Shown here: one piece after another, positions 40,574-55,955 of the stretch | Numbering within the stretch: the stretch's first letter is position 1 | Layout of the letters: each line of letters starts with the position of its first letter | Origin: a virus | DNA length: 64,000 nucleotides | IMG/VR virus record: IMGVR_UViG_3300035034_001742 | Location: 1 to 64,000 of that record | Direction: 5' to 3' (one strand) | Made by a program: the position numbers and the translations under genes | The notes under the pieces: model-generated | The model's database searches: none | Told to the model about the DNA's origin: nothing | Seen by the model: only the letters and a program-made list of their open reading frames with translations

Positions 40574-41461
40574 ATGTCAAAGGGTGCAATGATGTTTGCA
40601 CACAACAACGAAGAAATTGACTACATCAAGATTGCATGTTTAAATGCACTAATGATACAAGCGAATCTCGATGTTGGTGTAACACTAGTAACTGATGTCG
40701 GTACATTAAAGTGGGCCAAAGAATCTCTAGGAGCCGATTATCTCGACCAGTGCTTTGAGATTATTATAAGTGAAGATCCGGACTATGTGTACAAGCAAAA
40801 CAATATTCGCGTATTTAGAGATACAGTATACACCACCAAGCATTTGCCTTTTTACAATTGCGATCACTGGAAAGCATACGAGTTATCTCCATACGACGAA
40901 ACACTGTTCATCGATGCAGACTATTTGATAATGAGCGATGCATTAAACAGATGCTGGGGTTCGGCGCACGAAGTAATGATCAACAAAGACATAAGCGAAT
41001 TGTACTTTGGTCGCACACAAGAAAATAGCACAGTGGGCAAATCGGGCATTGACACATACTGGGCAACATGTATATACTTTCAGAAGTCAGAGCTAGCAGA
41101 GCATTTGTTTTACATGGTAAAATACATTTACGACAACTATGCTTACTATCGCGACCTGTATACAACTCCTAATTCGATGTTTCGAAATGACTATGCATTC
41201 AGCATTGCAGTACACATAATGAATGGATTTAGTAACAGTGACTTAATAAAGCAATTGCCAATCCCGGCATTGTACAAATCATTTGACAATGACGATATAG
41301 TTAGCATCAATGGCGTTAATGATATTACATTGCTACTCGAAAAACCTAAGTGCCACGGCGATTATATATTGTCCAGGTTCAAGGGAATGGATGTTCATGT
41401 CATGAACAAGTGGGCAATACTTCGCAATTACGATAAGCTAAAGGAGTTATACAGTGAGTAG
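40574..41461 (+). CDS. GT-A fold glycosyltransferase-like protein
   Basis: SPYDETLFIDAD (DxD motif) and FRNDYAFSIA. Confidence 0.75.
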   Translation: MSKGAMMFAHNNEEIDYIKIACLNALMIQANLDVGVTLVTDVGTLKWAKESLGADYLDQCFEIIISEDPDYVYKQNNIRVFRDTVYTTKHLPFYNCDHWKAYELSPYDETLFIDADYLIMSDALNRCWGSAHEVMINKDISELYFGRTQENSTVGKSGIDTYWATCIYFQKSELAEHLFYMVKYIYDNYAYYRDLYTTPNSMFRNDYAFSIAVHIMNGFSNSDLIKQLPIPALYKSFDNDDIVSINGVNDITLLLEKPKCHGDYILSRFKGMDVHVMNKWAILRNYDKLKELYSE

Positions 41462-42311
41462 AGGATATTTAGTCATTGCACAAAACTCCGGTGACATAGA
41501 CTACATACGTCAAGCATACGCATTAGCACTAAGCATAAAGAACACACAGCGCATAAACAGCTTTGCCATTGCAGTTGCAGAGAATGATATAGATCTCATT
41601 CCTAAGGACTATTTAGACGTGTTTGATCACGTGGTCGAGATACCTTATACCGATCATGCCGAAGGCGAACAGTGGAAGATACAAAATAAATGGAAGTATT
41701 ACTACATGACTCCATTTGATGAAACTGTTATACTTGACACCGACATGATATTCACCGCTGATGTTAGTTTTTGGTGGGACCACCTTGCAGAACGCGAAGC
41801 TTGGTTCACTACCAATGTTAAAACTTTCCGTGGTACTGATGTCACTTCTGATCACTACCGAAAAACATTTACCAGCAACCATTTGCCTAACGTATACACT
41901 GCATTTGCTTATTTTAGAAAAACTAAAAAAGTAGCAGAGTTATTTGAGTTGACCGAAACCATATTCCACAACTGGGAAAAGTTCTACTTTGAATTTTTAG
42001 ACGACACCAAGCCAGACTGGTTATCGGGTGATGTGGCGTATGCACTTGCAATAAAGTTACTTGGATACGAACACGAATTCACACAACCGTTGAAAAATAT
42101 ACCAACGTTTGTACACATGAAAACAAAATTACAAGACCACAACAACGACATACCATCGGAAGAGTGGACCAAGCACTTGCCGTCGTATTTTAAAACAAAT
42201 GGCGACTTAAAAATAGGTAACTTTAATCAGTTCTATCCTGTTCACTATCACGACAAAGCTTGGTTAACTGATCTAGTTGTTAAACGGTTAGAGGACATTT
42301 ATTATGGATAA
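41454..42311 (+). CDS. GT-A fold glycosyltransferase-like protein (paralog of 40574)
   Basis: TPFDETVILDTD (DxD motif), FVHMK, HYH. Confidence 0.75.
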   Translation: MSRGYLVIAQNSGDIDYIRQAYALALSIKNTQRINSFAIAVAENDIDLIPKDYLDVFDHVVEIPYTDHAEGEQWKIQNKWKYYYMTPFDETVILDTDMIFTADVSFWWDHLAEREAWFTTNVKTFRGTDVTSDHYRKTFTSNHLPNVYTAFAYFRKTKKVAELFELTETIFHNWEKFYFEFLDDTKPDWLSGDVAYALAIKLLGYEHEFTQPLKNIPTFVHMKTKLQDHNNDIPSEEWTKHLPSYFKTNGDLKIGNFNQFYPVHYHDKAWLTDLVVKRLEDIYYG

Positions 42312-42891
42312 GAAAATGTATGTGTTCTTTAACGAAGATGGTGATATAATGTCTGTATCACCTCGGTCTACAACTGATTTAGAAAATATACAGTCTGCTG
42401 AGCTACCGCGTCAGCAAGCAATTGATTTTTTGTCCGGTACAAAGAACATGTATCGTTATGCAATTGTAGCAGATAAGGAAACCGGTAACTTCAAGTGTGT
42501 ATCAAAAGAAACTGAAGTAAGTCAGCTCAACACAGTAGGTAGGTATTTAACAGAAGTCACCTCCGAGTTTTACGACAAACACGACATAATGATTGAACAT
42601 GATGTCCGTCGTAAAAAGTTGCGCATTACCATGTCAGGCACAGGCATCAGTAAGGCTGATACCAAGCGTAACAAAACACTTATATCGAACCATCGTAAAT
42701 TATCTTTTTATTTTACTTTATTTGGTGATCCAAATATGTTAATATGCGGTTTCGATGTAACTGTCAAGGAACTTGTAGACGGTGACGTATGTGTGAGTTT
42801 TGAGCACCTTGATAGTGAGCTAAATAATGCGACACTATTTACAAAGCAGATCCTAAGCAAGTATCATTATAGGAAGTTACAATACACATGA
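42304..42891 (+). CDS. Hypothetical protein
   Basis: Overlaps both neighbours within the operon. Confidence 0.6.
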   Translation: MDKKMYVFFNEDGDIMSVSPRSTTDLENIQSAELPRQQAIDFLSGTKNMYRYAIVADKETGNFKCVSKETEVSQLNTVGRYLTEVTSEFYDKHDIMIEHDVRRKKLRITMSGTGISKADTKRNKTLISNHRKLSFYFTLFGDPNMLICGFDVTVKELVDGDVCVSFEHLDSELNNATLFTKQILSKYHYRKLQYT

Positions 42892-43874
42892 CAACAGAAT
42901 TAAATCAATTAGATGTTATTTTTATCAGCTTTGATGAAGATAATTGCGAACAGAACTGGGCAGACTTGTTGACCAAGGTTCCATGGGCACAGCGCGTTCA
43001 TGGTGTAGAAGGCTCCGATGCGGCACACAAAGCCGCGGCACAGTTAAGCAGTACAGATAGATTCATAAGCGTGGACGCAGACAACATTGTTGATATTAAA
43101 TTCTTTGATCAGAAGATTGACTTCGAGAACGAAAAGTTCAAAGACAAAGTTGTTAGCTGGACTGCAAAGAATCACATCAACGGCTTGGAGTACGGCAACG
43201 GTGGACTAAAATGTTGGCCAGTTGAATATGTAATGAACATGCGCACACACGAAGCTGCCGAGGATGATAAGAACCAAGTTGATTTCTGTTGGGAAGACAC
43301 CTACGTACAAATGAACAATCGTTTTTGTACAACATTTCCAAATGGATCGCCACGCCAAGCATTTAGAGCAGGGTTTAGAGAAGGTGTTAAAATGTCTCTG
43401 GACCAAGGCAAGAAAGTAAACTACAAAGGCATAAAGAATAACATTTGGTGGGGCAACTACAATCGTCTTGTTATATGGGCCACTGTAGGAGCCGATGCCG
43501 CTAATGGCGACTGGGCAGTTTACGGTGCAAGACTTGGCTTTTACATGACCAATCTCACCGACTGGGACTTTGTGAATGTAAGAGACTTTGCATATCTTAA
43601 TAAGCTGTTTGCAGAAACAGTAGGTCCGCAGTTTGCAAGCAAAGACACCCATAGTTTTTATTGTCATAACTCCAAGTACTCGTGGAGCAAAGTAAAACTC
43701 GACGAAGAAATAAAACGGTTAGGCATGATTATACGCAAGGAATCAGGCATGGAAATTGCTGAACTTGACTGTACGCAAAGCCGTTTCTTTAAGGGCGCAT
43801 ATATAAACTTACCACGTACAGGATCCTACGTAACCGAAGATGAAATGAATCAACTTCGTGATTTAAACAGCTAA
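42888..43874 (+). CDS. GT-A/GT2-like glycosyltransferase
   Basis: Motifs DVIFISFDE, HGVEG..AAH.AAA, FISVDADN (DxD), NGLEYGNGG, AFRAGFREG. Confidence 0.68.
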   Translation: MTTELNQLDVIFISFDEDNCEQNWADLLTKVPWAQRVHGVEGSDAAHKAAAQLSSTDRFISVDADNIVDIKFFDQKIDFENEKFKDKVVSWTAKNHINGLEYGNGGLKCWPVEYVMNMRTHEAAEDDKNQVDFCWEDTYVQMNNRFCTTFPNGSPRQAFRAGFREGVKMSLDQGKKVNYKGIKNNIWWGNYNRLVIWATVGADAANGDWAVYGARLGFYMTNLTDWDFVNVRDFAYLNKLFAETVGPQFASKDTHSFYCHNSKYSWSKVKLDEEIKRLGMIIRKESGMEIAELDCTQSRFFKGAYINLPRTGSYVTEDEMNQLRDLNS

Positions 43875-43893
43875 CACAACACAGGATACAAAT

Positions 43894-45291
43894 ATGTCAG
43901 GAGAAATGGAACGACTTGCAAAAGTCAAGACCAAACTGGATGCGATTAGCCCCTCATTCTGTACTGCAAAGTGGTTACAAGTAACATTGCATCTGCAAAA
44001 TGGATTTAATCACAGTTGCCACCATCCTAAAACACACAAGATTCCGTTAGAAGAAATAGCTAATAATCCTAGTGCATTGCACAATACTCAGTACAAAAAG
44101 CAACAACGTAAGATGATGATCGAAGGCAAGCGCCCCGATGAGTGTCAGTATTGCTGGAATGTAGAAGACTTACCAGGCGACCAATTATCAGATAGGTATA
44201 TCAAGTCAGGCGACATTACCTGGGCCAATGATAAAATAGAAGAAATTGCACAAAGCGATTGGCGAGATGATGTTACACCCACTTATGTAGAAGTAAGCTT
44301 TTCAAATCATTGTAACTTCAAGTGTTCGTACTGTTCTCCAGTACATTCGTCGCAGTGGGCAAAGGAAGCCGCAGAGTTCGGACCGTACCCAACTAGTCAA
44401 AAATTCAACGGTATCGAATACCTTAAGCAAACTGGACAAATGCCAATACCGCACGATGAGTATAATCCGTATGTCGAGGCATTTTGGGAATGGTGGCCCG
44501 AGCTAAGTAAAACGCTTAGAGTATTCCGTGTAACAGGCGGTGACCCGCTAATGGAAAAGAATACGTTTAAGGTAATGGACAGAATTATTGCTGATCCTAT
44601 TCCTGCATTAGAGCTCAGCGTAAACACTAACGGTGGCGTATCAGATAGTCGCATACGCAAGTATGTCGAGAAAGCCAAGCAAGTTGAGAAAGTAATAAGA
44701 TTAAATCGTGTGTACACCAGTGTCGACACACATGGCAAGCAAGCCGAGTACATCAGAAGCGGACTTGAATACGATCGCTGGCTGTCGAACATAGATTACA
44801 TGATGACCGAGCTACCACTTACCAAGTTTACAATTATGTGTACTGCAAATATCTTTAGTGTGGTCAACTTTAAACTGCTACTCGAAGACGTATACAAACT
44901 GAAGTTAAAGCATTACAGTAAACATCGTAAGGTTGCTATCACAATTGATACTTCTATATTGCGCTGGCCTGGTCACCAACGTGCAAACATATTACCACCT
45001 GAGTATGCAGACATGATGCAACCAGCTCTTGATTATATGCGAGCACATGAAGAAGGCAACGAAGAAAACAATATACCGCATTATCAAGGCTTCTTTGATT
45101 TTGAAATTGCAAAGCTAGAACGTTTTATTGAATTCATCAAGGCGCCAAAGCATGCAAACGAAGACTACGATCTAGCAACAACACGAAAAGACTTTGTTAA
45201 GTTTGTCGATGAGCACGATCGCAGACGTGGCACAGACTTTAAAGGAACCTTTCCGGAGTTGCTTGATTTTTATAATACACACAAGGAGTAG
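43894..45291 (+). CDS. Radical SAM protein with N-terminal SPASM/twitch-like domain
   Basis: CNFKCSYC; TGGDP; N-terminal FC.AKW, SCHHP, CQYC. Confidence 0.9.
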   Translation: MSGEMERLAKVKTKLDAISPSFCTAKWLQVTLHLQNGFNHSCHHPKTHKIPLEEIANNPSALHNTQYKKQQRKMMIEGKRPDECQYCWNVEDLPGDQLSDRYIKSGDITWANDKIEEIAQSDWRDDVTPTYVEVSFSNHCNFKCSYCSPVHSSQWAKEAAEFGPYPTSQKFNGIEYLKQTGQMPIPHDEYNPYVEAFWEWWPELSKTLRVFRVTGGDPLMEKNTFKVMDRIIADPIPALELSVNTNGGVSDSRIRKYVEKAKQVEKVIRLNRVYTSVDTHGKQAEYIRSGLEYDRWLSNIDYMMTELPLTKFTIMCTANIFSVVNFKLLLEDVYKLKLKHYSKHRKVAITIDTSILRWPGHQRANILPPEYADMMQPALDYMRAHEEGNEENNIPHYQGFFDFEIAKLERFIEFIKAPKHANEDYDLATTRKDFVKFVDEHDRRRGTDFKGTFPELLDFYNTHKE

Positions 45292-45294
45292 ACA

Positions 45295-46338
45295 GTGATT
45301 GACATTGTTGACGGTGGTTTGCCAGAGCATTGGGAAATTACAAAAGAATATAATCAGACAATTTATTATATCACAAAACAAATTAACACTCGTTTCCCAC
45401 GCGATAGAAATTTGCTTATTAGCACACAATGGGAATGGATGATACCGCCTGATAAAAATTTAAACAGTCCACGGTACGAAAAGCAATACGATAATGTGTT
45501 TATACTGTCCACTCTCGATACTGTTCCGCGTGACCGTGTAGAAGAATACGAAGCAAAGGGTATTAATGTTTATTACATAGGCAATACTACCGGCCGTGGT
45601 TATTTTAGTTTTCATAGCATAAACAGCAAGCATTTTAAACAGTATACCAACCAAGAACTGGAACCGGTGTCATTTAAAAACAAGTTTTTATGTTACAACA
45701 GAAATCCACATGAACACAGGCTCAAACTTGTAAACGAGATTGTAAAACGTGGACTAGACAAACAAGGCGTAGTTACGCTAGGCGACAACTTTTACACTCA
45801 CAATGTCACTGGCAAGTATCCACTTGCACATGCTGCCGCACCTCGTTCAGTTGAGGAAAATATTAACCAACTAATAACGCAAGGCGATGCCGAAGCGTTA
45901 AATGAGTTGACAATACCGCATGATACCTATACACTGGGTAACATGGAAATATGGCAAAATACGTTTTTGGTTGTTGTAACTGAGACATCAGTTGAGTCTA
46001 ACATGCACATAACAGAAAAGATACTCAAGCCAATGATTGGCAAGCGTCCGTATATAGTGTTAGGTGATGTCGGACTTGAAGATCACTTACAGACGTGCGG
46101 ATTTAAGTCGTTTGGTAAATATTTCGACACAGCGTTTGACAAACTACCTTCCTATAGCATGGAAAAGTATGTTGCCATATGCGAAATTATCGAACAAATT
46201 ACAAACAAGTCCGAGCAAGAGTTGCAAGAACTGTACAACGACATGCGACCAACCATTGAACACAATCACGAAAATGTTAAATGGTTCCAGGATCATAATC
46301 AATTAAAGATACAAAACAAAGGACTTTTTAGGTTATAA
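45295..46338 (+). CDS. GT-B/GT10-like glycosyltransferase-related protein
   Basis: FLCYNR.P..HR and VVTET...ITEK..KP...KRPYIVLG. Confidence 0.6.
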   Translation: MIDIVDGGLPEHWEITKEYNQTIYYITKQINTRFPRDRNLLISTQWEWMIPPDKNLNSPRYEKQYDNVFILSTLDTVPRDRVEEYEAKGINVYYIGNTTGRGYFSFHSINSKHFKQYTNQELEPVSFKNKFLCYNRNPHEHRLKLVNEIVKRGLDKQGVVTLGDNFYTHNVTGKYPLAHAAAPRSVEENINQLITQGDAEALNELTIPHDTYTLGNMEIWQNTFLVVVTETSVESNMHITEKILKPMIGKRPYIVLGDVGLEDHLQTCGFKSFGKYFDTAFDKLPSYSMEKYVAICEIIEQITNKSEQELQELYNDMRPTIEHNHENVKWFQDHNQLKIQNKGLFRL

Positions 46339-46339
46339 T

Positions 46340-48004
46340 ATGGCTAAAAAACAAGGCGAGTCGTACAGAGAATATAGAGATAGAGTTGTAGACCCTATCT
46401 CCGGGGCCTTCTGTGGTGCCAAATGGTACAATGCAACCATATGGTTAAACAACGGCACAACTACTAGCTGTCACCACCCACCCGCGCACAAAATAGTCGA
46501 CTTCGAAAACGGAGAGACATATGAAGACCTTAAAGCCAATCCTTCATTGATACACAACACCACATACAAGAAGAATGTGCGCAAGCAAATGCTCATGGGC
46601 GAACGTCCTAAGGAATGCGAGTATTGCTGGAAAATTGAAGACTTAGGTCAAGACAAAATTTCCGATCGCGTGTTCAAGAGTGTTATATACACCGATGAAG
46701 AGCTTGAAGAATGCCGTGACGTACATGCCGAAACAGAAGATGTCGATTTAAAGACATTAGAAATTGCGTTCGATTCAAACTGCAACTTTGCATGTTCATA
46801 TTGTAATGCAAGTTTCTCAACCACATGGCAAAAGGATATTCGTCAGAATGGCGCATACCAAAACCTACACAGCGATGGCGCAAGAGCATTCCAGCAAGAC
46901 GGTGGGTGGACCAAGCAGTTCAAGAAGAACGAAGCCAATCCGTACACAGAAGCTTTTTGGGACTGGTGGCCTAAACTTAGTAAATCACTGGATCAGTTGC
47001 GTGTAACAGGCGGCGATCCTCCTATGAGCCCAGACTTCTGGAAGCTTGTAGACTGGTGGAAAGACAACGGGCAAGATTTAGACATGAAGTTCGCAGTAAA
47101 CAGTAACATGGGCCATAAAGGCAAGACCATGGATAAGTTTGTTGAGTGTTCGCACATTTTTAAAGAATTTATTGTTTACACTTCAAACGAGTCCACGTAT
47201 GCGCAAGCAGAGTACATTCGCGATGGTCTAGAATGGTCCTACTGGAAAGAGTCAGTTAATAGATTACTTCAGGAAGGTAGTGTACAGGAGTTGCATGTGA
47301 TGATGACAATCAACAGTTTATGTTTGTTTAGCATTACTGACTTCATGGACTATTGCAACACACTCAAGCGCAAGTACGGACACATGTATGGTGTTTGTTC
47401 TGTTAATATATTGCGTTTTCCAAGTTTCCAAGCACCGGGCACATTGCCTGCAGAGATACGCCACGAACGTGCCGACCATATAGAAAGATGGTTAGCTGAT
47501 AATCGTGATAATGGTGTTATGCATGACATGGAAATAGACGGTGTTGACCGATTGGTAGAGTATTTGCGTAGTGTAGATGAGCCACATAGGTACACCAGCT
47601 CAATTGAGTCGCGCCACAAGGACTTTAAATCGTTTTACAAGCAGTACGACGAACGCCGAGGAAAGGACTTCGTGTCTGCATTTCCTGAATTAGCCGAGTG
47701 GTATAACAGCTTACCTTATCAAGAGTCAATACCAATTTTGCAATTGTACGACGGCGACTCAAGCAAAGGAACAGCAGATCGCAGAGAGCTTGAAGTTCGT
47801 GCCAAGACAGACGAGTGGAAAAACCAAAATACTAACCCCGGTGCCAAGGAGTACAAGGAGAAGAAGTATAATGTTGTAGACTTATCGAGCCTAGGAATTA
47901 CCGAGCTGAGAAAAGTCTACAAGCAAGTGTCAGTGGAGGCAATGAATGTCGACTGGGAACGATCGGAGCTCATTGAAGAAATACTTAGGGAACAGGAAAA
48001 GTAA
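46340..48004 (+). CDS. Radical SAM/SPASM-like protein with a C-terminal extension
   Basis: CNFACSYC; TGGDP; SCHHPP; CEYC. Confidence 0.9.
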   Translation: MAKKQGESYREYRDRVVDPISGAFCGAKWYNATIWLNNGTTTSCHHPPAHKIVDFENGETYEDLKANPSLIHNTTYKKNVRKQMLMGERPKECEYCWKIEDLGQDKISDRVFKSVIYTDEELEECRDVHAETEDVDLKTLEIAFDSNCNFACSYCNASFSTTWQKDIRQNGAYQNLHSDGARAFQQDGGWTKQFKKNEANPYTEAFWDWWPKLSKSLDQLRVTGGDPPMSPDFWKLVDWWKDNGQDLDMKFAVNSNMGHKGKTMDKFVECSHIFKEFIVYTSNESTYAQAEYIRDGLEWSYWKESVNRLLQEGSVQELHVMMTINSLCLFSITDFMDYCNTLKRKYGHMYGVCSVNILRFPSFQAPGTLPAEIRHERADHIERWLADNRDNGVMHDMEIDGVDRLVEYLRSVDEPHRYTSSIESRHKDFKSFYKQYDERRGKDFVSAFPELAEWYNSLPYQESIPILQLYDGDSSKGTADRRELEVRAKTDEWKNQNTNPGAKEYKEKKYNVVDLSSLGITELRKVYKQVSVEAMNVDWERSELIEEILREQEK

Positions 48005-49215
48005 TGGATGAATCCAATAATCATTTTTGCATGGCGCCATGGCTTCATTTACACATGTGGCCAAATGGTAACGTGTATCCATGTTGTACTGCACCGTCAG
48101 AGGATCCATTTGGCAATACCAAGACTGAATCATTAGAAGAAGTATGGAATGGAGATCGTATGCGAGAGCTACGATCTAACATGCTCTCCGATAAGCCAAG
48201 CAAGTCATGTGAACGTTGTTACAAACTGGAGGAGCATGGTTCCTTTAGTATGCGCAAAGACATGAACCAAAAATTCAAGCACCGCTATAACGATACCAAA
48301 AAGACACACCAAGATGGGCATCATCCCGAAATGAAAATGCGATACATGGACATTCGGTTCAGCAACATTTGCAACTTCAAGTGTCGCAGTTGTGGGCCTG
48401 AGTTGAGCTCGCTGTGGTACGACGATCAGGTTATATTACATGGCAAGCCGGATGGCAAGCGAATACAGCGTCCGTTTAAAACTACCACTGAGCTATGGCA
48501 AAACCTTGAAAAGATTCTTCCTTATGTTGAAGAAGTTTACTTTGCAGGTGGCGAGCCTCTTGTGTCCGTTGAGCATTATGAGATACTAGATTACTTAGTC
48601 GAGCATAATAGAACTGATGTGCGTTTGGTATACAACACCAACTTCAGTAAACTGCGTTTCAAAGGCAAAGACGTATTTGATTATTGGAAAAAGTTTGCAG
48701 ACGTTAATGTTGGTGCTAGCTTGGATGCCATGGGAGAACGCGCCGAGTACATGCGTGCAGGAACAGTGTGGGAAGACATAGAAATAAACAGACAGCGTTT
48801 GCAAAAAGAATGCCCGCATGTTTCTTTCTTTATTGCCGCTACTGTATCTCTTTACAACGGCTGGCACTTGCCCGACTTTTACTTGGACTGGCTAAACAAA
48901 GGGTTTTCGCATTGGGAATCAATCAATATAAATATATTGCATTACCCAGCACACCTCAGCTTAACTGTGTTACCTGCAGAAATCAAAGAACAGATAACTG
49001 CAAAGTATAAAAGAGCAATTGCACGCATACCACCTGAGTACAGAGAATTTAATAGACTGGCAAGCGTGGTTGACTACATGAACAGTCGTGATGACAGTCA
49101 CATGATTCCAGAATTCTTCAAGCGCAATGAAACACTTGACGACATCAGAAATGAAGACTTTATTACTGCATTTCCTGAACTAAAGCCCATGATGCAATAC
49201 AAGGAAACAAAATGA
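48004..49215 (+). CDS. Radical SAM/SPASM (twitch) protein
   Basis: CNFKCRSC; AGGEP; FCMAPW...YPCC...CERC. Confidence 0.9.
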   Translation: MDESNNHFCMAPWLHLHMWPNGNVYPCCTAPSEDPFGNTKTESLEEVWNGDRMRELRSNMLSDKPSKSCERCYKLEEHGSFSMRKDMNQKFKHRYNDTKKTHQDGHHPEMKMRYMDIRFSNICNFKCRSCGPELSSLWYDDQVILHGKPDGKRIQRPFKTTTELWQNLEKILPYVEEVYFAGGEPLVSVEHYEILDYLVEHNRTDVRLVYNTNFSKLRFKGKDVFDYWKKFADVNVGASLDAMGERAEYMRAGTVWEDIEINRQRLQKECPHVSFFIAATVSLYNGWHLPDFYLDWLNKGFSHWESININILHYPAHLSLTVLPAEIKEQITAKYKRAIARIPPEYREFNRLASVVDYMNSRDDSHMIPEFFKRNETLDDIRNEDFITAFPELKPMMQYKETK

Positions 49216-49325
49216 AAAACGACAGACATGTTGTACTATACAATCGGTATCTAATCTGTTACTACTTGTACATTCCAACATACCGCATTGTAGATGATCA
49301 GTTTTGGGACGATGCTAGTAAATGA
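49212..49325 (+). CDS. 37-aa Tyr-rich peptide (not in ORF track)
   Basis: MKNDRHVVLYNRYLICYYLYIPTYRIVDDQFWDDASK; AAGGA RBS; ATGA overlaps at both ends. Confidence 0.68.
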   Translation: MKNDRHVVLYNRYLICYYLYIPTYRIVDDQFWDDASK

Positions 49326-50539
49326 GCAAAGCCAAAACTAACTTCTGCGTGCTGCCTTGGGTACACCTAAGTGCCGATACAGATGGCACCTTTAGTCCGT
49401 GCTGTCTGTATCAAGGTGCCATCAAACGCGACGATGGTAAGAAGCACATAACCGAAGGTGTTACTGTTAGTGACGTGTGGAACGGCAAATACATGCAGGA
49501 TCTGCGTACCCAGTTTATTAACGATGAGAGGCCGCATGAGTGTCGTTACTGCTGGGACTTAGAAGACGGTGGCATGAAAAGCAAGCGAATAAACGACTTA
49601 GAGCGGTTCCATGTACCAGAACAAGCCTATGAGGCTGTTACCTCGGAAAAACCCATCTATTTCGACTTAAAACTAGGCAGTATATGCAATCTAAAGTGCC
49701 GTATATGCACGTTTGAGAACAGTATCAAGTGGGCCAAAGATGCCAAAGCGTTAAAGCTTGCAGACGACAGTCTTGTGGATTACTACCTTGCAAACAGTCG
49801 GTGGGCAGAAGACTATCCTGAATTTTGGCAAGACCTATTGCAATACACAGATGATGTTGTGCAAATAGACTTTGCAGGTGGTGACCCATTACTGATCAAG
49901 GAGCATTACCGTTTCTTAGAAATGTTAACTGAGCGTACAGATGTATCTAACATAGCCATTCACTATAATACCAACGGCACCATACTGCCCTCGGATCATG
50001 TACTACAAAATATATGGCCGCAGTTCAAGCGTGTCGAGATAATGCTAAGCATAGATGCAGTAGGCAAGAAGTTTGAATATCAGCGACATGGAGCAAAGTG
50101 GCCAACTGTGGATAAGAATGTTGCAAAGTTTGATGCATTCGACAATACTGTTTTACAGGTTTGCCATACAGTAAATATACTAAACGTTCTTGACATTTGC
50201 GACTTCGTGGTATGGGCAGAAGATAAGAACCTTGAAATCTATTTTAACATGTTGTATCATCCGGATTATTACAATATTAAAAACTTGCCGCTGTCGGCAA
50301 AACAAGTTGTAACTAACCGAGTTAAACACATGCTAAATACACATACGTTTAAATACAAGTCGGCCAGTAAGTCACTTGAAGAAATACGCGACTATGTTGG
50401 TACACCAGGTGGGACCGGCGAGTTAATTGCATTTAATGATATTACACACAAACTTGATGATTTTAGAAATGAAGACTTTGCATCAACTTTCCCGGAGTTA
50501 AAAGAGCACCTATATGGAGAAGCCAAACAAACTACCTGA
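49322..50539 (+). CDS. Radical SAM/SPASM (twitch) protein
   Basis: CNLKCRIC; AGGDP; FCVLPW...SPCC...CRYC. Confidence 0.9.
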   Translation: MSKAKTNFCVLPWVHLSADTDGTFSPCCLYQGAIKRDDGKKHITEGVTVSDVWNGKYMQDLRTQFINDERPHECRYCWDLEDGGMKSKRINDLERFHVPEQAYEAVTSEKPIYFDLKLGSICNLKCRICTFENSIKWAKDAKALKLADDSLVDYYLANSRWAEDYPEFWQDLLQYTDDVVQIDFAGGDPLLIKEHYRFLEMLTERTDVSNIAIHYNTNGTILPSDHVLQNIWPQFKRVEIMLSIDAVGKKFEYQRHGAKWPTVDKNVAKFDAFDNTVLQVCHTVNILNVLDICDFVVWAEDKNLEIYFNMLYHPDYYNIKNLPLSAKQVVTNRVKHMLNTHTFKYKSASKSLEEIRDYVGTPGGTGELIAFNDITHKLDDFRNEDFASTFPELKEHLYGEAKQTT

Positions 50540-51842
50540 TGTATTCTGTACGGCACCGTGGACTCACACCTATGTTAGTCCTCAAGGCGAAAGACGCCTA
50601 TGCTGTGCCAGTAGAGAAGACGCATCATTTCAACGACAGTACATAGATGCTGACACCGGAACAAAGACCGACACGTTCAATCCTGATACTTTAGTCCAGC
50701 ACTGGAACTCAGAGTACATGAAAGATATTCGCAAGCGCATAATGGCCGGTGAGAAGATATCACAATGCGAAGTGTGCAACGATCAAGTTCTCAATCTACA
50801 CACCTATCGTAACTATTTTACTCAGACTCTCTTTCCTCATCACATTGATAAAATTTACGAGAGTACATCGGAAGATGGCCACACCACACTTGAACCCGTT
50901 AGCTTCGATTATCGACTTAGCAACCGTTGCGACTTTAAATGTCGTATGTGCGGAGAGCAACTTAGCTCAAGCTGGGAAGCCGAAAAGCGAAAGCATGGCA
51001 TGTGGGATCCTAAGATTGACAAGTGGATGGCACCAGAACTACGCATTCCAATCAAAGACTTTCAAGAGAATGTGCTCGAAGATGAGCTACAACGTGCCGT
51101 AGACAACGAAACAGTTGAAGAATTATATTGGGTAGGCGGCGAACCATTGATGTGGGAGAAGCACTGGACCGTGATGCAACAACTTGTTGATACAGGTCAC
51201 TCCAAGAATGTGGTTGTGCGCTACAATACGAACCTAAACCGATTGAGTCGTAAAGATTCAAAGCTGTACGACTTGTTGCCGCATTTCAAGCGCGTTAACC
51301 TGTGCGCTAGCATAGACGGTGGTGGGCCAATAGGCGAATACATACGAACCGGATTAAACTGGACAAAATGGTTAGACAATTTCAAACAAGGACTATTCTT
51401 AAAAGAACAGTTCGGTAACGACGGCATTGTGTTCGATGTAACACTGACCATGCCCGGGTTGTTTGCCCTGCAAGACATGTTTGACTTGGCAATTGAGTTA
51501 GACGTCAAAACTTATTTAAAGATTACATTTTCGTTTGACAGTACTGTTCTCATGTCGCCCATGTCATTGCCACGCAATGTTCTTGATGGCATCATAGATG
51601 ACTTGTTGGTTCATATGACACCACGAGCAACCGATAAAACACAAGTGTACATTGACACGCTTAAAGAAATGAAGAAGCGCCCTGTATTTGAAGAGCAGTA
51701 TGACAACTATCAAGACGGCTTTCGAGAAGGACGTAAACGTTTGCTTGACATAGAAGCAATTAGAAAACAACCAATTATCATGGAAGAAATACTTTCGACC
51801 AACAGTCTTGCACTGAGTTGGTGGAATCAGGAGATACAATGA
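50514..51842 (+). CDS. Radical SAM/SPASM (twitch) protein
   Basis: CDFKCRMC; VGGEP; FCTAPW...RLCC...CEVC. Confidence 0.9.
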   Translation: MEKPNKLPDVFCTAPWTHTYVSPQGERRLCCASREDASFQRQYIDADTGTKTDTFNPDTLVQHWNSEYMKDIRKRIMAGEKISQCEVCNDQVLNLHTYRNYFTQTLFPHHIDKIYESTSEDGHTTLEPVSFDYRLSNRCDFKCRMCGEQLSSSWEAEKRKHGMWDPKIDKWMAPELRIPIKDFQENVLEDELQRAVDNETVEELYWVGGEPLMWEKHWTVMQQLVDTGHSKNVVVRYNTNLNRLSRKDSKLYDLLPHFKRVNLCASIDGGGPIGEYIRTGLNWTKWLDNFKQGLFLKEQFGNDGIVFDVTLTMPGLFALQDMFDLAIELDVKTYLKITFSFDSTVLMSPMSLPRNVLDGIIDDLLVHMTPRATDKTQVYIDTLKEMKKRPVFEEQYDNYQDGFREGRKRLLDIEAIRKQPIIMEEILSTNSLALSWWNQEIQ

Positions 51843-53104
51843 GCAAAGATCCAAATAAAACATTTTGTGTGCTACCGTGGATTCACTTAGCAACACATCC
51901 TATGGGGCATGTTACTCTTTGTTGTGAAGCTGACATGAACAATAATGCTAGTAGCAGTAGAGACAAGTTCGATACCATAGACGGCAAGCAACTAGAAGAA
52001 CTAAAGTATTTAGGCAAGCATGCAATAACAAAAATACACAATAGCGATTACTTTAACGAAGTGCGCAAGCAAATGTTAGAAGGCGAACGTCCTTCGGCTT
52101 GTACCAGATGTTTTGACCGCGAAGACCAAGGACTAGACAGTAAGCGATTGCTGGAACACCGTGAGTATCCCAATTATAAAATCGAAGAAGCAATCGAAAA
52201 CACAAACGACAACGGCAGTCTAAAGAAAACAGATTTCAGATTTGTTGAGTTTAGGCTGGGCAATGTGTGTAATGTAAAATGTAGAACATGTAACCCTGCT
52301 AGCTCAAACAGATGGAAAACCGATTACGAAAAACTACAAGACGGTGACTGGGATGGTGCCAAAGCAATTCCTCAGTACCGTGGAATAGATTGGAGTACAT
52401 TTGACTGGTGCGAAGACCCAGACGTTTATGAGGATATTCTTGATAAGTGTGAAAACTTAGAAAGCCTATATATAAATGGCGGTGAGCCAACACTCATTAA
52501 AGAGCATTGGACATTCCTTCAGCAACTCATTGACAAAGGATTTGCAAAGAATATTAAAGTATGGTACAGTTTGAATATGACAATGATTCCAGACATTGCA
52601 TTTGAGTTGTGGAGTCAATTTAAAGAAGTTGAAATACGCGCAAGCATAGACGATATTGAACACCGTAATACTTACATAAGACACCCGACCAAATGGAAGA
52701 ATGTGCTGAAAACTGTTGACCTATGCTTGAATAGTGACACTGTTAGAATTAAAATATTGCAAACTATAAGTGTATATAATTTCCCATACTTGAGTGAGTT
52801 TCACGATTACTGGAACAACTACAACGACCGCATAGAAATTGCACACAACTTTGTTATGTATCCTGACTTCATGGCACCCGATGTAATTCCGTTGGAAATA
52901 AGAAAGAAAATAATTGAAAAGATTATGCAATGCAATACAATGTCGCAACAACAGAAGCATGAAATACAACAATTATACGGAACAAAAGAACACGATCCCG
53001 AGAAATGGCAACTGTTTCTTAATTACACTGCTGAGCTTGACTCAATAAGACGCGAATCGTTTGATGAAACTTTTCCTGAATTTAAAGAATTAATAGATGG
53101 TTAA
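51839..53104 (+). CDS. Radical SAM/SPASM (twitch) protein (start corrected to MSKDP)
   Basis: CNVKCRTC; NGGEP; FCVLPW...TLCC...CTRC; GGAG RBS and ATGA overlap. Confidence 0.9.
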   Translation: MSKDPNKTFCVLPWIHLATHPMGHVTLCCEADMNNNASSSRDKFDTIDGKQLEELKYLGKHAITKIHNSDYFNEVRKQMLEGERPSACTRCFDREDQGLDSKRLLEHREYPNYKIEEAIENTNDNGSLKKTDFRFVEFRLGNVCNVKCRTCNPASSNRWKTDYEKLQDGDWDGAKAIPQYRGIDWSTFDWCEDPDVYEDILDKCENLESLYINGGEPTLIKEHWTFLQQLIDKGFAKNIKVWYSLNMTMIPDIAFELWSQFKEVEIRASIDDIEHRNTYIRHPTKWKNVLKTVDLCLNSDTVRIKILQTISVYNFPYLSEFHDYWNNYNDRIEIAHNFVMYPDFMAPDVIPLEIRKKIIEKIMQCNTMSQQQKHEIQQLYGTKEHDPEKWQLFLNYTAELDSIRRESFDETFPEFKELIDG

Positions 53105-54179
53105 TTTAGTTCATAGCAGAAACAAAGACTTAAAACGTAAATCTTACCGCGGCAAAGATTCGTTATTTGGTTATCTTGATTATTATGATGTTGAGTACTC
53201 GAGTGTTTACCGACATCATGGATATCTGGTTATAGAATTAGTTAACATTTTCGAAACTGCTGACCTGCTTGATTACTTTAGCCCGTGTGAACGCGCAATG
53301 GTAGCAAGCGGTTGGTACAAATTGTTATTGTTTTATCCGAAGGAACCGGTAAGTTATCGGTTAATAAAGACATCGTTGGATGCACTAAACAATCATTTCA
53401 TACCGAATAAAAATATTATACTTGTGACAGGTGAACACGGACCTGAACTACTGCGAGAGTTTCCGTCGGATCTAACTGTTATACCGTACTTCTGGTTTGA
53501 TATGTCCACCTTGCACAGTTATAGTGGACGCACCGATATATCACATAACCCGAGCAAGAGTTTTTTGTGTTATAATGGCACAGTAAAGCTACATCGAACA
53601 CTGATGTTCGAGCAACTTCAGGACAACAAAGACGGCTATGTTAGCTACCTCAAGCGCATTTACAGCAAAGATGTTGTGCAGGATGAAATAGATAACAGTT
53701 TGCTATCAGTACATGAAAAGATAGTTGCACAGAATATATCCTATTCGTCACCTGTTGAAATTGATTTGTCTCCGAGCCAATGTATTACAAATCAGTTTAC
53801 AGACGACTTAGATTTATATCACGACACCAAATTTAGTATTGTTACTGAATCTATCTCGAGTACCGGCTCTTTGTTCATAACAGAAAAAACATTTAAAGCA
53901 ATATTATCTATGCATCCGTTTATGATTTCGGGAAGCCCAGGGCTGATTGCGTTTATGCAGTCACAAGGCTATAAAAGTTATGACTTGATGTTTGACGAAA
54001 CGTATGATAATATACGACACCTAACAGATCGCATGCGAGCCATTGTCGACCAGGTAGCTAATTGTAAATCAACAAATCCGGAATCGGTGTTTGATATTGC
54101 ACATTTTAACCGAGAGAGATGCCTAACCACTGACTATGGCTCTCGACTAAACAGTTTACTTGAGCTCATCGACAAATGA
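53097..54179 (+). CDS. GT-B/GT10-like glycosyltransferase-related protein
   Basis: FLCYNG...HR; FSIVTES...FITEKTFKAI...HPF; FDETYD. Confidence 0.6.
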   Translation: MVNLVHSRNKDLKRKSYRGKDSLFGYLDYYDVEYSSVYRHHGYLVIELVNIFETADLLDYFSPCERAMVASGWYKLLLFYPKEPVSYRLIKTSLDALNNHFIPNKNIILVTGEHGPELLREFPSDLTVIPYFWFDMSTLHSYSGRTDISHNPSKSFLCYNGTVKLHRTLMFEQLQDNKDGYVSYLKRIYSKDVVQDEIDNSLLSVHEKIVAQNISYSSPVEIDLSPSQCITNQFTDDLDLYHDTKFSIVTESISSTGSLFITEKTFKAILSMHPFMISGSPGLIAFMQSQGYKSYDLMFDETYDNIRHLTDRMRAIVDQVANCKSTNPESVFDIAHFNRERCLTTDYGSRLNSLLELIDK

Positions 54180-54820
54180 AAATACTATTACTGGTCCCGG
54201 ATTTTAGCGATCCTTTCGTATCGCATATGATGAGTAGATTATCCAGCAATGATGATAACTTAGATATTAAAACATTTAGTTATGAGTTCGATGTAAGCAT
54301 GTATGATATTATATATATATTTCCCGGAATGATCCACGGACATATTACAGATAGCATTATTAAGAAAAAAGTAGGACCACTCGTGCTTGGGTTATTATCA
54401 CACCATAACAGTGTGCTGTTATTGCACCATCATTACTCCTGTTTTTATCATGCAGTTACGCTAACTTTTCGTGTAGTTACTGAAAATTTATTTATTAATC
54501 CTTTTGGTATGCTGGTGTTGTTACACAAATATCCGGTAATAGAAAACTATCAATTCGGCAACGGTGACCACGATACCTTCATTTTTGCGAATAACAGTGC
54601 TATAATCTGCTTGGTATCAAGGGTTAATGTTGAAGAGCATGACAAAAAACTAATGCCTGTTATACCGCTTAACGAGTATGTATCGACAAACTTTGAGTTT
54701 GATATTTTCTTTAATGAAAGTTATATATCCTTACCTGTCTTAAGAGAGTTCGGTGATTCATTTTGGAAAATGAATTTTTATCAAATATGGGAGAGCTTTT
54801 ATCATAAAACTTATGGATGA
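54176..54820 (+). CDS. Hypothetical protein
   Basis: Coupled ORF; no recognised motif. Confidence 0.5.
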   Translation: MKILLLVPDFSDPFVSHMMSRLSSNDDNLDIKTFSYEFDVSMYDIIYIFPGMIHGHITDSIIKKKVGPLVLGLLSHHNSVLLLHHHYSCFYHAVTLTFRVVTENLFINPFGMLVLLHKYPVIENYQFGNGDHDTFIFANNSAIICLVSRVNVEEHDKKLMPVIPLNEYVSTNFEFDIFFNESYISLPVLREFGDSFWKMNFYQIWESFYHKTYG

Positions 54821-55955
54821 GCATTCGTACAAGACAGGACGTACATTTTACGATACTGTGTTTTACTATGACTACAAATATGCAAATATGCATGTTAAGC
54901 CAGTCGATTGCAGATATGTAGACTATTCAATAGGGATCATACATTATATTGTTTCGCACTGGGGGTATTTCGGCGACAAGCCGGCTGACATAACAGATGA
55001 AATGATTCGATATGCCAAGCAAGGAAAGGTTAACATTCTATTTGATTTTTCATTCGAGGGAGAATTATTACCACTACAAAATTTCTTAGATCATATGAGT
55101 GGGTTGGGATTGCCAGAAAATTCTTACAGTGCAATCACATCTGCAGGGTATCTCGACGGGTTTTGTCTGCCGGATAAACGCATGATACATTCACCTATGT
55201 TTGAAGTAAAGGCGCTAAAGTGCATGCGATATGAAATTGATAAGCCCATACACAGTTTCGGATTAACGGAACGTCGTAAATTTATAATGCTGAATGCAAG
55301 ACCGAGGCCAGGTCGAATTATACTTTCGTATTTACTATATGCCGCCAATGTTCTCGATAAAGGCTATTGCTCTGTGCCAGCAGAAACAGGAAACGTTGTG
55401 GAAACTTACGATTTTTTTGAAACAATAGAAGTAGAAAAAAAGAGAGGGTTTAGTAACATCAATCCTGCCACAGTGAGTAAAATGCATGCACAGCTACCCT
55501 TTGTGGTCGACCAAGTTAATTACAACAATTCAATAATAATCAATGATACTATATTCTCAGATATATATGACCTAGTAGACTTTGCATTGATTACCGAAAC
55601 CATGGCCGATGAATACCCGGGTAAAGTTTTTATAACAGAAAAAGTACTTAAAGCAATTGCAAATAAAGTTCCGTTTATTGTGCTCGGAGATATACACACA
55701 TTAAAATATTTAAAACAGTTAGGATATAAAACGTTTGATTTTTTAATTGACGAAAGCTATGACTCGATGCCGTATGTCGATAGAGTAAATACAATAGTTG
55801 CAGAAGTAACACGATTATGTGATGTAGATTTTAACAAGTACAGTACCCAGATTAAAGCAGTGACAGAACACAATTATAGTGTGCTGTCCAATGCAGACAA
55901 CTACACAAAGAGAATATCTAATGTAATAGATTTTCTTAGCAAACGCCCTACATAA
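54813..55955 (+). CDS. GT-B/GT10-like glycosyltransferase-related protein
   Basis: FIMLNARPRP.R; LITET...FITEKVLKAI...PFIVLG; GYKTF..LIDESYD. Confidence 0.62.
   Translation: MDEHSYKTGRTFYDTVFYYDYKYANMHVKPVDCRYVDYSIGIIHYIVSHWGYFGDKPADITDEMIRYAKQGKVNILFDFSFEGELLPLQNFLDHMSGLGLPENSYSAITSAGYLDGFCLPDKRMIHSPMFEVKALKCMRYEIDKPIHSFGLTERRKFIMLNARPRPGRIILSYLLYAANVLDKGYCSVPAETGNVVETYDFFETIEVEKKRGFSNINPATVSKMHAQLPFVVDQVNYNNSIIINDTIFSDIYDLVDFALITETMADEYPGKVFITEKVLKAIANKVPFIVLGDIHTLKYLKQLGYKTFDFLIDESYDSMPYVDRVNTIVAEVTRLCDVDFNKYSTQIKAVTEHNYSVLSNADNYTKRISNVIDFLSKRPT

Follow-up and report, generated by a model that had tools for sequence, protein, structure and literature searches.

A 37-codon open reading frame on a lineage-specific insertion, possibly a translational bridge between two radical SAM genes of a giant phage

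Between two adjacent radical SAM genes of a phage operon, we have found a micro-ORF of 37 codons that is carried by an insertion of approximately 110 nt, restricted to the lineage of the DNA under study; we tentatively read this micro-ORF, with a confidence close to even, as a young, lineage-specific bridging ORF, which would preserve the translational coupling of the two enzyme genes that it separates. The analysed DNA, which we refer to as "the window", is the 64,000-nt stretch with which a 79.5-kb IMG/VR record (CheckV completeness approximately 22%) begins. The genes of the window include a portal gene, genes of a T4-type baseplate hub and wedge, and a gene for an SbcC-like nuclease; since the portal and the T4-type baseplate genes are present and the closest relatives are located on contigs of 320-335 kb, the window is taken to belong to a giant myovirus.

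The features that are concerned here are the following:

43894-53104, plus strand: array of six NF033640 paralogs, with the micro-ORF inside it (NCBIfam profiles; collinear with the relative L030)
48004-49215, plus strand: upstream N-terminal-twitch radical SAM gene (P0003, 403 aa; NF033640 at 427 bits; AF2 model with pLDDT 91)
49201-49205, plus strand: AAGGA Shine-Dalgarno site, 6 nt 5' of the ATG of the micro-ORF (from the sequence and from the alignment with L030 and L031)
49212-49321, plus strand: lineage-specific insertion of approximately 110 nt (from the alignment with L030 and L031), present as a single copy in the 79.5-kb record
49212-49325, plus strand: micro-ORF (P0001), an ATG-to-TGA frame of 37 codons, stop included in the coordinates (codon-usage log-likelihood 5.9; spanned entirely, without indels, by contigs of three studies)
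49322-50539, plus strand: downstream N-terminal-twitch radical SAM gene (P0004, 405 aa; NF033640 at 365 bits)

The micro-ORF is connected with both of its neighbours through stop/start overlaps, the arrangement that is expected of a bridging ORF: its ATG (49212-49214) overlaps the TGA stop codon of the upstream gene (49213-49215) within the ATGA at 49212-49215, and at its other end, the TGA that closes it (49323-49325) and the start codon of the downstream gene (49322-49324) share bases within the ATGA at 49322-49325. As is also expected of a bridged gene, P0004 has no well-placed Shine-Dalgarno sequence of its own: the only such motif in the 20 nt before position 49322 is a weak GGA at a distance of 12 nt, and a TAA is located in the frame of P0004 immediately 5' of its ATG. 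At nearly every junction of the operon, the genes overlap or are separated by no more than 3 nt, the 106-nt gap that holds the micro-ORF being the second largest among the 24 junctions. The preliminary description of this DNA had reported the 37-aa ORF, the composition of its product (six Tyr, one Cys, one Trp and one Phe), the AAGGA site and the ATGA overlaps on both sides, all of which we have found in the sequence as described.

The same description had placed the micro-ORF between radical SAM/SPASM genes, and both neighbours do match the Pfam SPASM and Radical_SAM families (residues 9-73 for SPASM/twitch, 118-270 for Radical_SAM) as well as the NCBIfam family NF033640. The six paralogs of the array are full-length members of NF033640, with scores of 306-427 bits against a curated cut-off of 170 bits; P0003 and P0004 cover positions 2-397 of the 398 positions of the profile and carry both the CxxxCxxC motif and the N-terminal Cys motifs of the family, the Cys columns being invariant in the alignment. 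A UDP-glucose-dehydrogenase-like gene and an NAD epimerase/dehydratase gene are located downstream of the array. In the comparison of the AF2 model of P0003 by Foldseek, the nearest folds (anSME, SkfB, viperin, CteB, BlsE, MoaA and DesII) have been retrieved at TM values of 0.35-0.42, so that the modelled structure is related to radical SAM enzymes in a generic manner only; a sequence search of the PDB returned no relative, and our search of the literature on NF033640 found no paper. Several additional observations have been made in the same operon. The 554-aa paralog (46340-48004) is matched by the family profile up to approximately residue 455 and ends in a C-terminal extension of approximately 100 aa, without a family match, which is 82% conserved in L030. 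Eight proteins of the operon (40574-43874, 45295-46338 and 53097-55955) are without a Pfam match (E<=0.01), and three of these eight, encoded at 53097-54179, 54813-55955 and 45295-46338, are mutual distant paralogs by BLASTP.

The insertion is revealed by the comparison of the window with two close relatives that we have fetched, a 319.6-kb metagenome contig (L030) and a 5.2-kb contig (L031), whose cassettes are both collinear with that of the window, with 75-87% amino acid identity per gene. In these relatives (75-78% amino acid identity), no spacer separates the orthologs of P0003 and P0004, which share 8 nt in L030 and 17 nt in L031; in the DNA alignment, the approximately 110 extra bases of the window begin directly after the common ...TACAAGG, and they are bounded by a direct repeat of 6 nt, AAATGA (49210-49215 and 49320-49325). 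The position of the AAGGA differs accordingly: it is located 5-6 nt before the ATG of the downstream enzyme gene in L030 and L031, and before the ATG of the micro-ORF in the window, which indicates that the insertion displaced this site from the downstream gene to the front of the micro-ORF. As to the source of the inserted DNA, the insert shows no similarity to either flank, to any of the six paralogs or to the extra gene of the relatives that is described below, so that a tandem duplication, a piece of a paralog and a remnant of that gene have each been rejected; the suggestion of the preliminary description that the micro-ORF may be a gene remnant has, for this reason, found no support. The extra gene just mentioned encodes 246-254 aa and is located one junction upstream, between the genes for the 554-aa and the 404-aa radical SAM proteins (L030:6027-6791 and L031:267-1007); its product has an N-terminal GDS motif and a weak match to DUF6071 (E=1e-4). 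The window is devoid of this gene, and at the corresponding junction (48004) its two genes share one base.

Since L030 and L031 group together in a separate subclade, further lineages have been examined through the ends of their proteins: in an out-of-frame overlap, the last residues of one protein and the first residues of the next are read from the same bases, and the tail and the head of a cognate pair should thus be compatible in frame. Overlaps of 11-14 nt fit the cognate pairs P0242/P0013-type, P0243/P0010, P0245/P0014 and P0247/P0016, of which P0242 is the closest upstream ortholog that was found (85% identity); in the latter three pairs, the longest contigs of the two members are equally long. 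Non-cognate pairs gave fits of 0-4 nt only, or fits that are due to a shared N-terminus, and the pair P0244/P0229 gave a fit of 4 nt only, which is uninformative. In four lineages besides L030 and L031, the two enzyme genes would therefore appear to overlap directly, without a spacer, this comparison of junctions being made apart from the contigs of the nearest orthologs, P0007 (95%), P0008 (81%) and P0009/P0229. In the more distant L007, the enzyme pair occurs as a single 832-aa ORF without a linker (L007:5968-8466), and approximately 100 clusters contain proteins of approximately 735-1,470 aa, most of them double-domain proteins of approximately 815-850 aa (P0127-P0228), at 29-46% identity. 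Fusions of N-terminal-twitch radical SAM proteins with TPR repeats or with methyltransferase domains also occur (P0196-P0207, P0212). Among the distinct junctions between two radical SAM genes in other viral loci, 21 of 23 overlap or abut. The direct overlaps in the relatives, the fusions and these junctions together indicate that the absence of a spacer is the ancestral state, and that the insert was acquired in the lineage of the window itself.

The course of events that we propose is as follows. In the recent ancestry of the window's lineage only, approximately 110 nt of DNA were inserted at the overlap junction of two coupled radical SAM genes, which took the AAGGA away from the downstream enzyme gene; the version that survived would be one in which a single open frame begins at the former start site, with its ATG overlapping the upstream stop, and ends in an ATGA newly formed where the downstream gene starts. 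After ending translation of the upstream gene, or after loading at the AAGGA, ribosomes would read the 37 codons, stop at the TGA and presumably re-initiate on the overlapping ATG, so that the downstream enzyme would still be produced in step with its partner, and the peptide itself would be a by-product whose particular sequence has little or no function. Our preference for this bridging role follows from the direct overlap of the two genes in L030 and L031 and its probable occurrence in four more lineages, from the fusion of the pair in L007 and in the approximately 100 clusters, and from the overlapping or abutting state of the 21 junctions; it follows equally from the place of the AAGGA in front of the micro-ORF, with the downstream gene left without a well-placed site, from the construction of the whole operon on stop/start overlaps, and from the lack of a homolog of the peptide in any search. 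The population data that are presented below, free of indels and with four non-synonymous changes to one synonymous change among the listed sites, likewise fit a frame that is kept open while its sequence is free. The gene-like codon usage, the excess of Tyr and the pattern of a constant 5' part and a variable 3' part are left unexplained by the bridging role.

Whether the frame is a gene or a product of chance has been addressed through its length, its phase and its codons. When the insert is shuffled with its dinucleotides preserved, 7.5% of the sequences have an open frame of 36 codons, and random sequences of matched composition have one in 9.2% of cases (approximately 8%), and the phase that is needed to join both ATGA sites has a one-in-three chance. 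The codon-usage log-likelihood of the micro-ORF (5.9) is to be compared with 8.8+-4.1 for windows of real genes and -3.5+-5.1 for open off-frame windows; it is attained by 4% of the open shuffles and by 0.9% of the open off-frame windows in real genes. Given the openness of the frame at these chances, its phase, its gene-like codon usage and the size of the gap, we take the micro-ORF as probably a translated frame and not noise. The opposing explanation, i.e. an untranslated spacer or an RNA or DNA element whose open frame is a chance by-product of an insert rich in TAC and GTAC, seems to us distinctly improbable. It can draw on the 7.5-9% of random sequences that give an open frame of such length, on the RNA fold, which is modestly more stable than that of shuffles (z=-2.15), and on the repeated TTGTAC/TAC motifs of the DNA, which may account for the enrichment of Tyr in P0001 (6 of 37 residues, p=0.007); yet the joint odds of the phase (one in three), the open frame (approximately 8%) and the gene-like codon usage (1-4%) are very low, the insert matches no Rfam family (there is only a sub-threshold miRNA match), has no second copy in the record and contains no promoter-like or terminator-like site on the plus strand. 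The T4-type late-promoter motif TATAAATA, in particular, is absent from the insert. A perfect 8-bp stem can be formed between positions 49300-49307 and 49332-49339, with the downstream ATG in a loop of 24 nt; one pair of this stem is lost in the common variant T49303A, and no compensating change occurs among the listed variants, which also speaks against a structural element. No RNA run is listed among the public runs that hold the stretch.

Variation of the insert in nature has been followed in public metagenomes: part of the stretch is present in 16 runs of 13 studies, which comprise metagenomes of lakes, salt lakes, ice and other aquatic habitats, and contigs from four of these runs, each of a different study (X3-X6), have been compared with it. 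In X4, X5 and X6, single contigs bridge the whole insert without an indel, at 93-99% identity, and in X3 the insert is covered by overlapping contigs, again without indels. Among the 40 listed of the 84 variant sites, the flanking genes have 28 synonymous and 7 non-synonymous changes, while the micro-ORF has one synonymous and four non-synonymous changes (V27R/G, F31Y and A35V), a contrast with a Fisher p of 0.015 per site and 0.012 per codon for these 40 sites; the changes in the micro-ORF, as far as they are listed, are all located in its last third, at codons 27-35. A 151-nt contig of X5 (record 12) matches the window up to position 49274 (codon 21) and diverges completely afterwards; its next 30 bases are open in the frame of the micro-ORF only, and the divergent part, aligned without gaps at 43% DNA identity, has the residue pairs I/V, D/D, D/E, Q/E and F/Y. 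From position 49274 of the window onward, the 3' third of the insert seems to be hypervariable, as judged from this contig. The confinement of the listed variation to the last third, together with the divergent contig in which the frame is kept, could reflect constraint at the level of the protein.

This population pattern and the X5 variant, thin as they are, constitute the main reason why we have kept under consideration a functional peptide, i.e. a young micro-protein outside the RiPP class that the lineage has gained as a partner, a regulator or an Fe-S helper of the flanking enzymes, which we regard as unlikely. Such a micro-protein would be in accordance with the gene-like codon usage and the Shine-Dalgarno site, with the frame that is intact across four studies, and with the retention of the frame and of some residue classes in the divergent X5 variant. 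A genuine accessory gene is, moreover, nested in the same way elsewhere: in a 322.6-kb phage record (L021:2302-2637), a 111-aa gene of the FeS_assembly_P family (PF01883, E=8e-15) is located between two N-terminal-twitch paralogs, with an ATGA on both sides, and from its sequence it would be a phage-borne Fe-S helper of the array; the arrangement of two ATGA overlaps cannot, therefore, separate a bridge from a gene when taken alone. In the same record, a 41-aa ORF (7456-7581) occupies the only other gap that was seen. Against a functional micro-protein, the peptide has no homolog and belongs to no family, it is absent from every relative examined even though all six enzymes are kept there, the replacements among the listed variants include the radical V27R, and the AF2 single-sequence model of P0001 is a generic helix, which is uninformative.

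The searches for homologs of the peptide have been extensive. No homolog of P0001 was found in 1.84 billion protein representatives (phmmer), in a six-frame tblastn of 50,697 phage genomes (best E = 3) or in the related loci that we have fetched, and no known family was assigned to it; a back-translated 15-residue pattern of the peptide had no match in IMG/VR, the region and the insert had no match among GenBank phages (megablast and blastn), and the ESM Atlas contained no look-alike of the peptide (best score 0.78). With the ortholog alignment as query, the genomes of IMG/VR and GTDB yielded distant relatives only. The sole phmmer match, P0006, is a four-fold tandem-repeat protein whose score sums four weak matches of approximately 12 bits, and it has been read as a chance match. 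The tblastn for syntenic peptides had been proposed in the preliminary description as a check of its main interpretation, a RiPP precursor, and the lack of a homolog in related clusters is the first half of the outcome that it had named as contrary to this interpretation.

According to the RiPP interpretation, the peptide is a precursor or substrate in which aromatic or Cys residues are cross-linked by one or both of the flanking radical SAM enzymes; we consider this very improbable. The gene of the peptide does adjoin those of two radical SAM enzymes that carry an auxiliary cluster, the peptide itself being considered here: it is rich in aromatic residues and contains aromatic-X-X motifs, which are non-specific evidence in a 37-mer, and among the listed variants its N-terminal two thirds look constant and its C-terminal third variable, resembling a leader and a core, an impression to which the 40 listed of the 84 sites and the single divergent contig contribute. 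The nearest folds of P0003 also include the peptide and protein modifiers anSME, SkfB and CteB, yet at the same low TM values and beside viperin, BlsE and MoaA. A precursor is expected to be conserved together with its maturase, but the six-gene enzyme set is kept without the peptide in L030 and L031 and, as far as the protein ends indicate, in four more lineages, and no peptide is present at 21 of the 23 other junctions; since the six enzymes are conserved in relatives without the peptide, their substrate would be something else. The order of domains is also opposite to that of known peptide maturases: cyclophane and other peptide maturases carry the SPASM/twitch as a C-terminal extension and make use of an RRE (PMC11851443), while in both P0003 and P0004 the twitch is N-terminal to the radical SAM core. 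In agreement with the preliminary description, the Pfam and NCBIfam scans of 20 operon proteins identified no RRE or PqqD-like element, no leader protease and no exporter, with the reservation that such HMM scans may miss divergent RREs. The matches to the XyeB and YhhB profiles reach 28-30 bits against cut-offs of 445-450, and over all the characterised maturase families that were compared (XyeB, YhhB, WgkB and PapB) the highest scores lie at 19-30 bits, the cut-offs being 340-650, while the island itself carries the UDP-glucose-dehydrogenase-like and epimerase/dehydratase genes. The interpretation of the preliminary description has thus held in part: its fallback, a coupling spacer, fits the anatomy of the overlaps and the relocated Shine-Dalgarno sequence well and is the best-supported reading, while the RiPP precursor, for want of a homolog in related clusters, with an N-terminal twitch, no RRE in the scans and a context of sugar enzymes, has found no support, and neither has the gene remnant.

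As a feature, the micro-ORF is of an ordinary kind, a lineage-specific orphan micro-ORF; if it is a bridging ORF, it would provide a tidy, small case of a phage operon that tolerates an insertion between coupled genes by means of an open relay frame. The comparison also removes a tempting false lead, as the six-enzyme cassette comes without a precursor peptide, so that the sugar-handling context is where its substrate should continue to be sought. A newborn peptide that is bound or modified by the flanking enzyme pair, and whose N-terminal part is constant while its acidic and aromatic C-terminal part changes rapidly, is in our estimation a long shot; if true, this would be of far greater importance, since such a peptide would offer a first experimental access to the class of substrates of an enzyme family that is widespread in phages.

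Three kinds of known systems can be compared with the locus. Radical SAM/SPASM RiPP systems, i.e. the triceptides or three-residue cyclophanes of XyeB/YhhB and WgkB, the streptide of SuiB and the sactipeptides, share with it a short, aromatic-rich ORF beside radical SAM enzymes and the auxiliary Fe-S Cys motifs of these enzymes; they differ from it in that the enzymes here belong to NF033640, with an N-terminal twitch, no RRE found, a peptide that is not co-conserved and sugar enzymes nearby. The ATGA termination-reinitiation coupling of phage and bacterial operons is similar in its stop/start overlaps, which occur here on both sides of the micro-ORF, and in a downstream gene without a well-placed Shine-Dalgarno sequence; the locus differs by an extra 37-codon frame that is located on an insertion and would serve as a relay between two genes whose counterparts in relatives overlap directly or are fused. 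Finally, the NF033640 (N_Twi_rSAM) arrays of T4-like and giant phages correspond to the array of the window in their full-length members and in its collinearity with the 319.6-kb relative, the difference being the micro-ORF, an addition that is seen in the window's lineage only.
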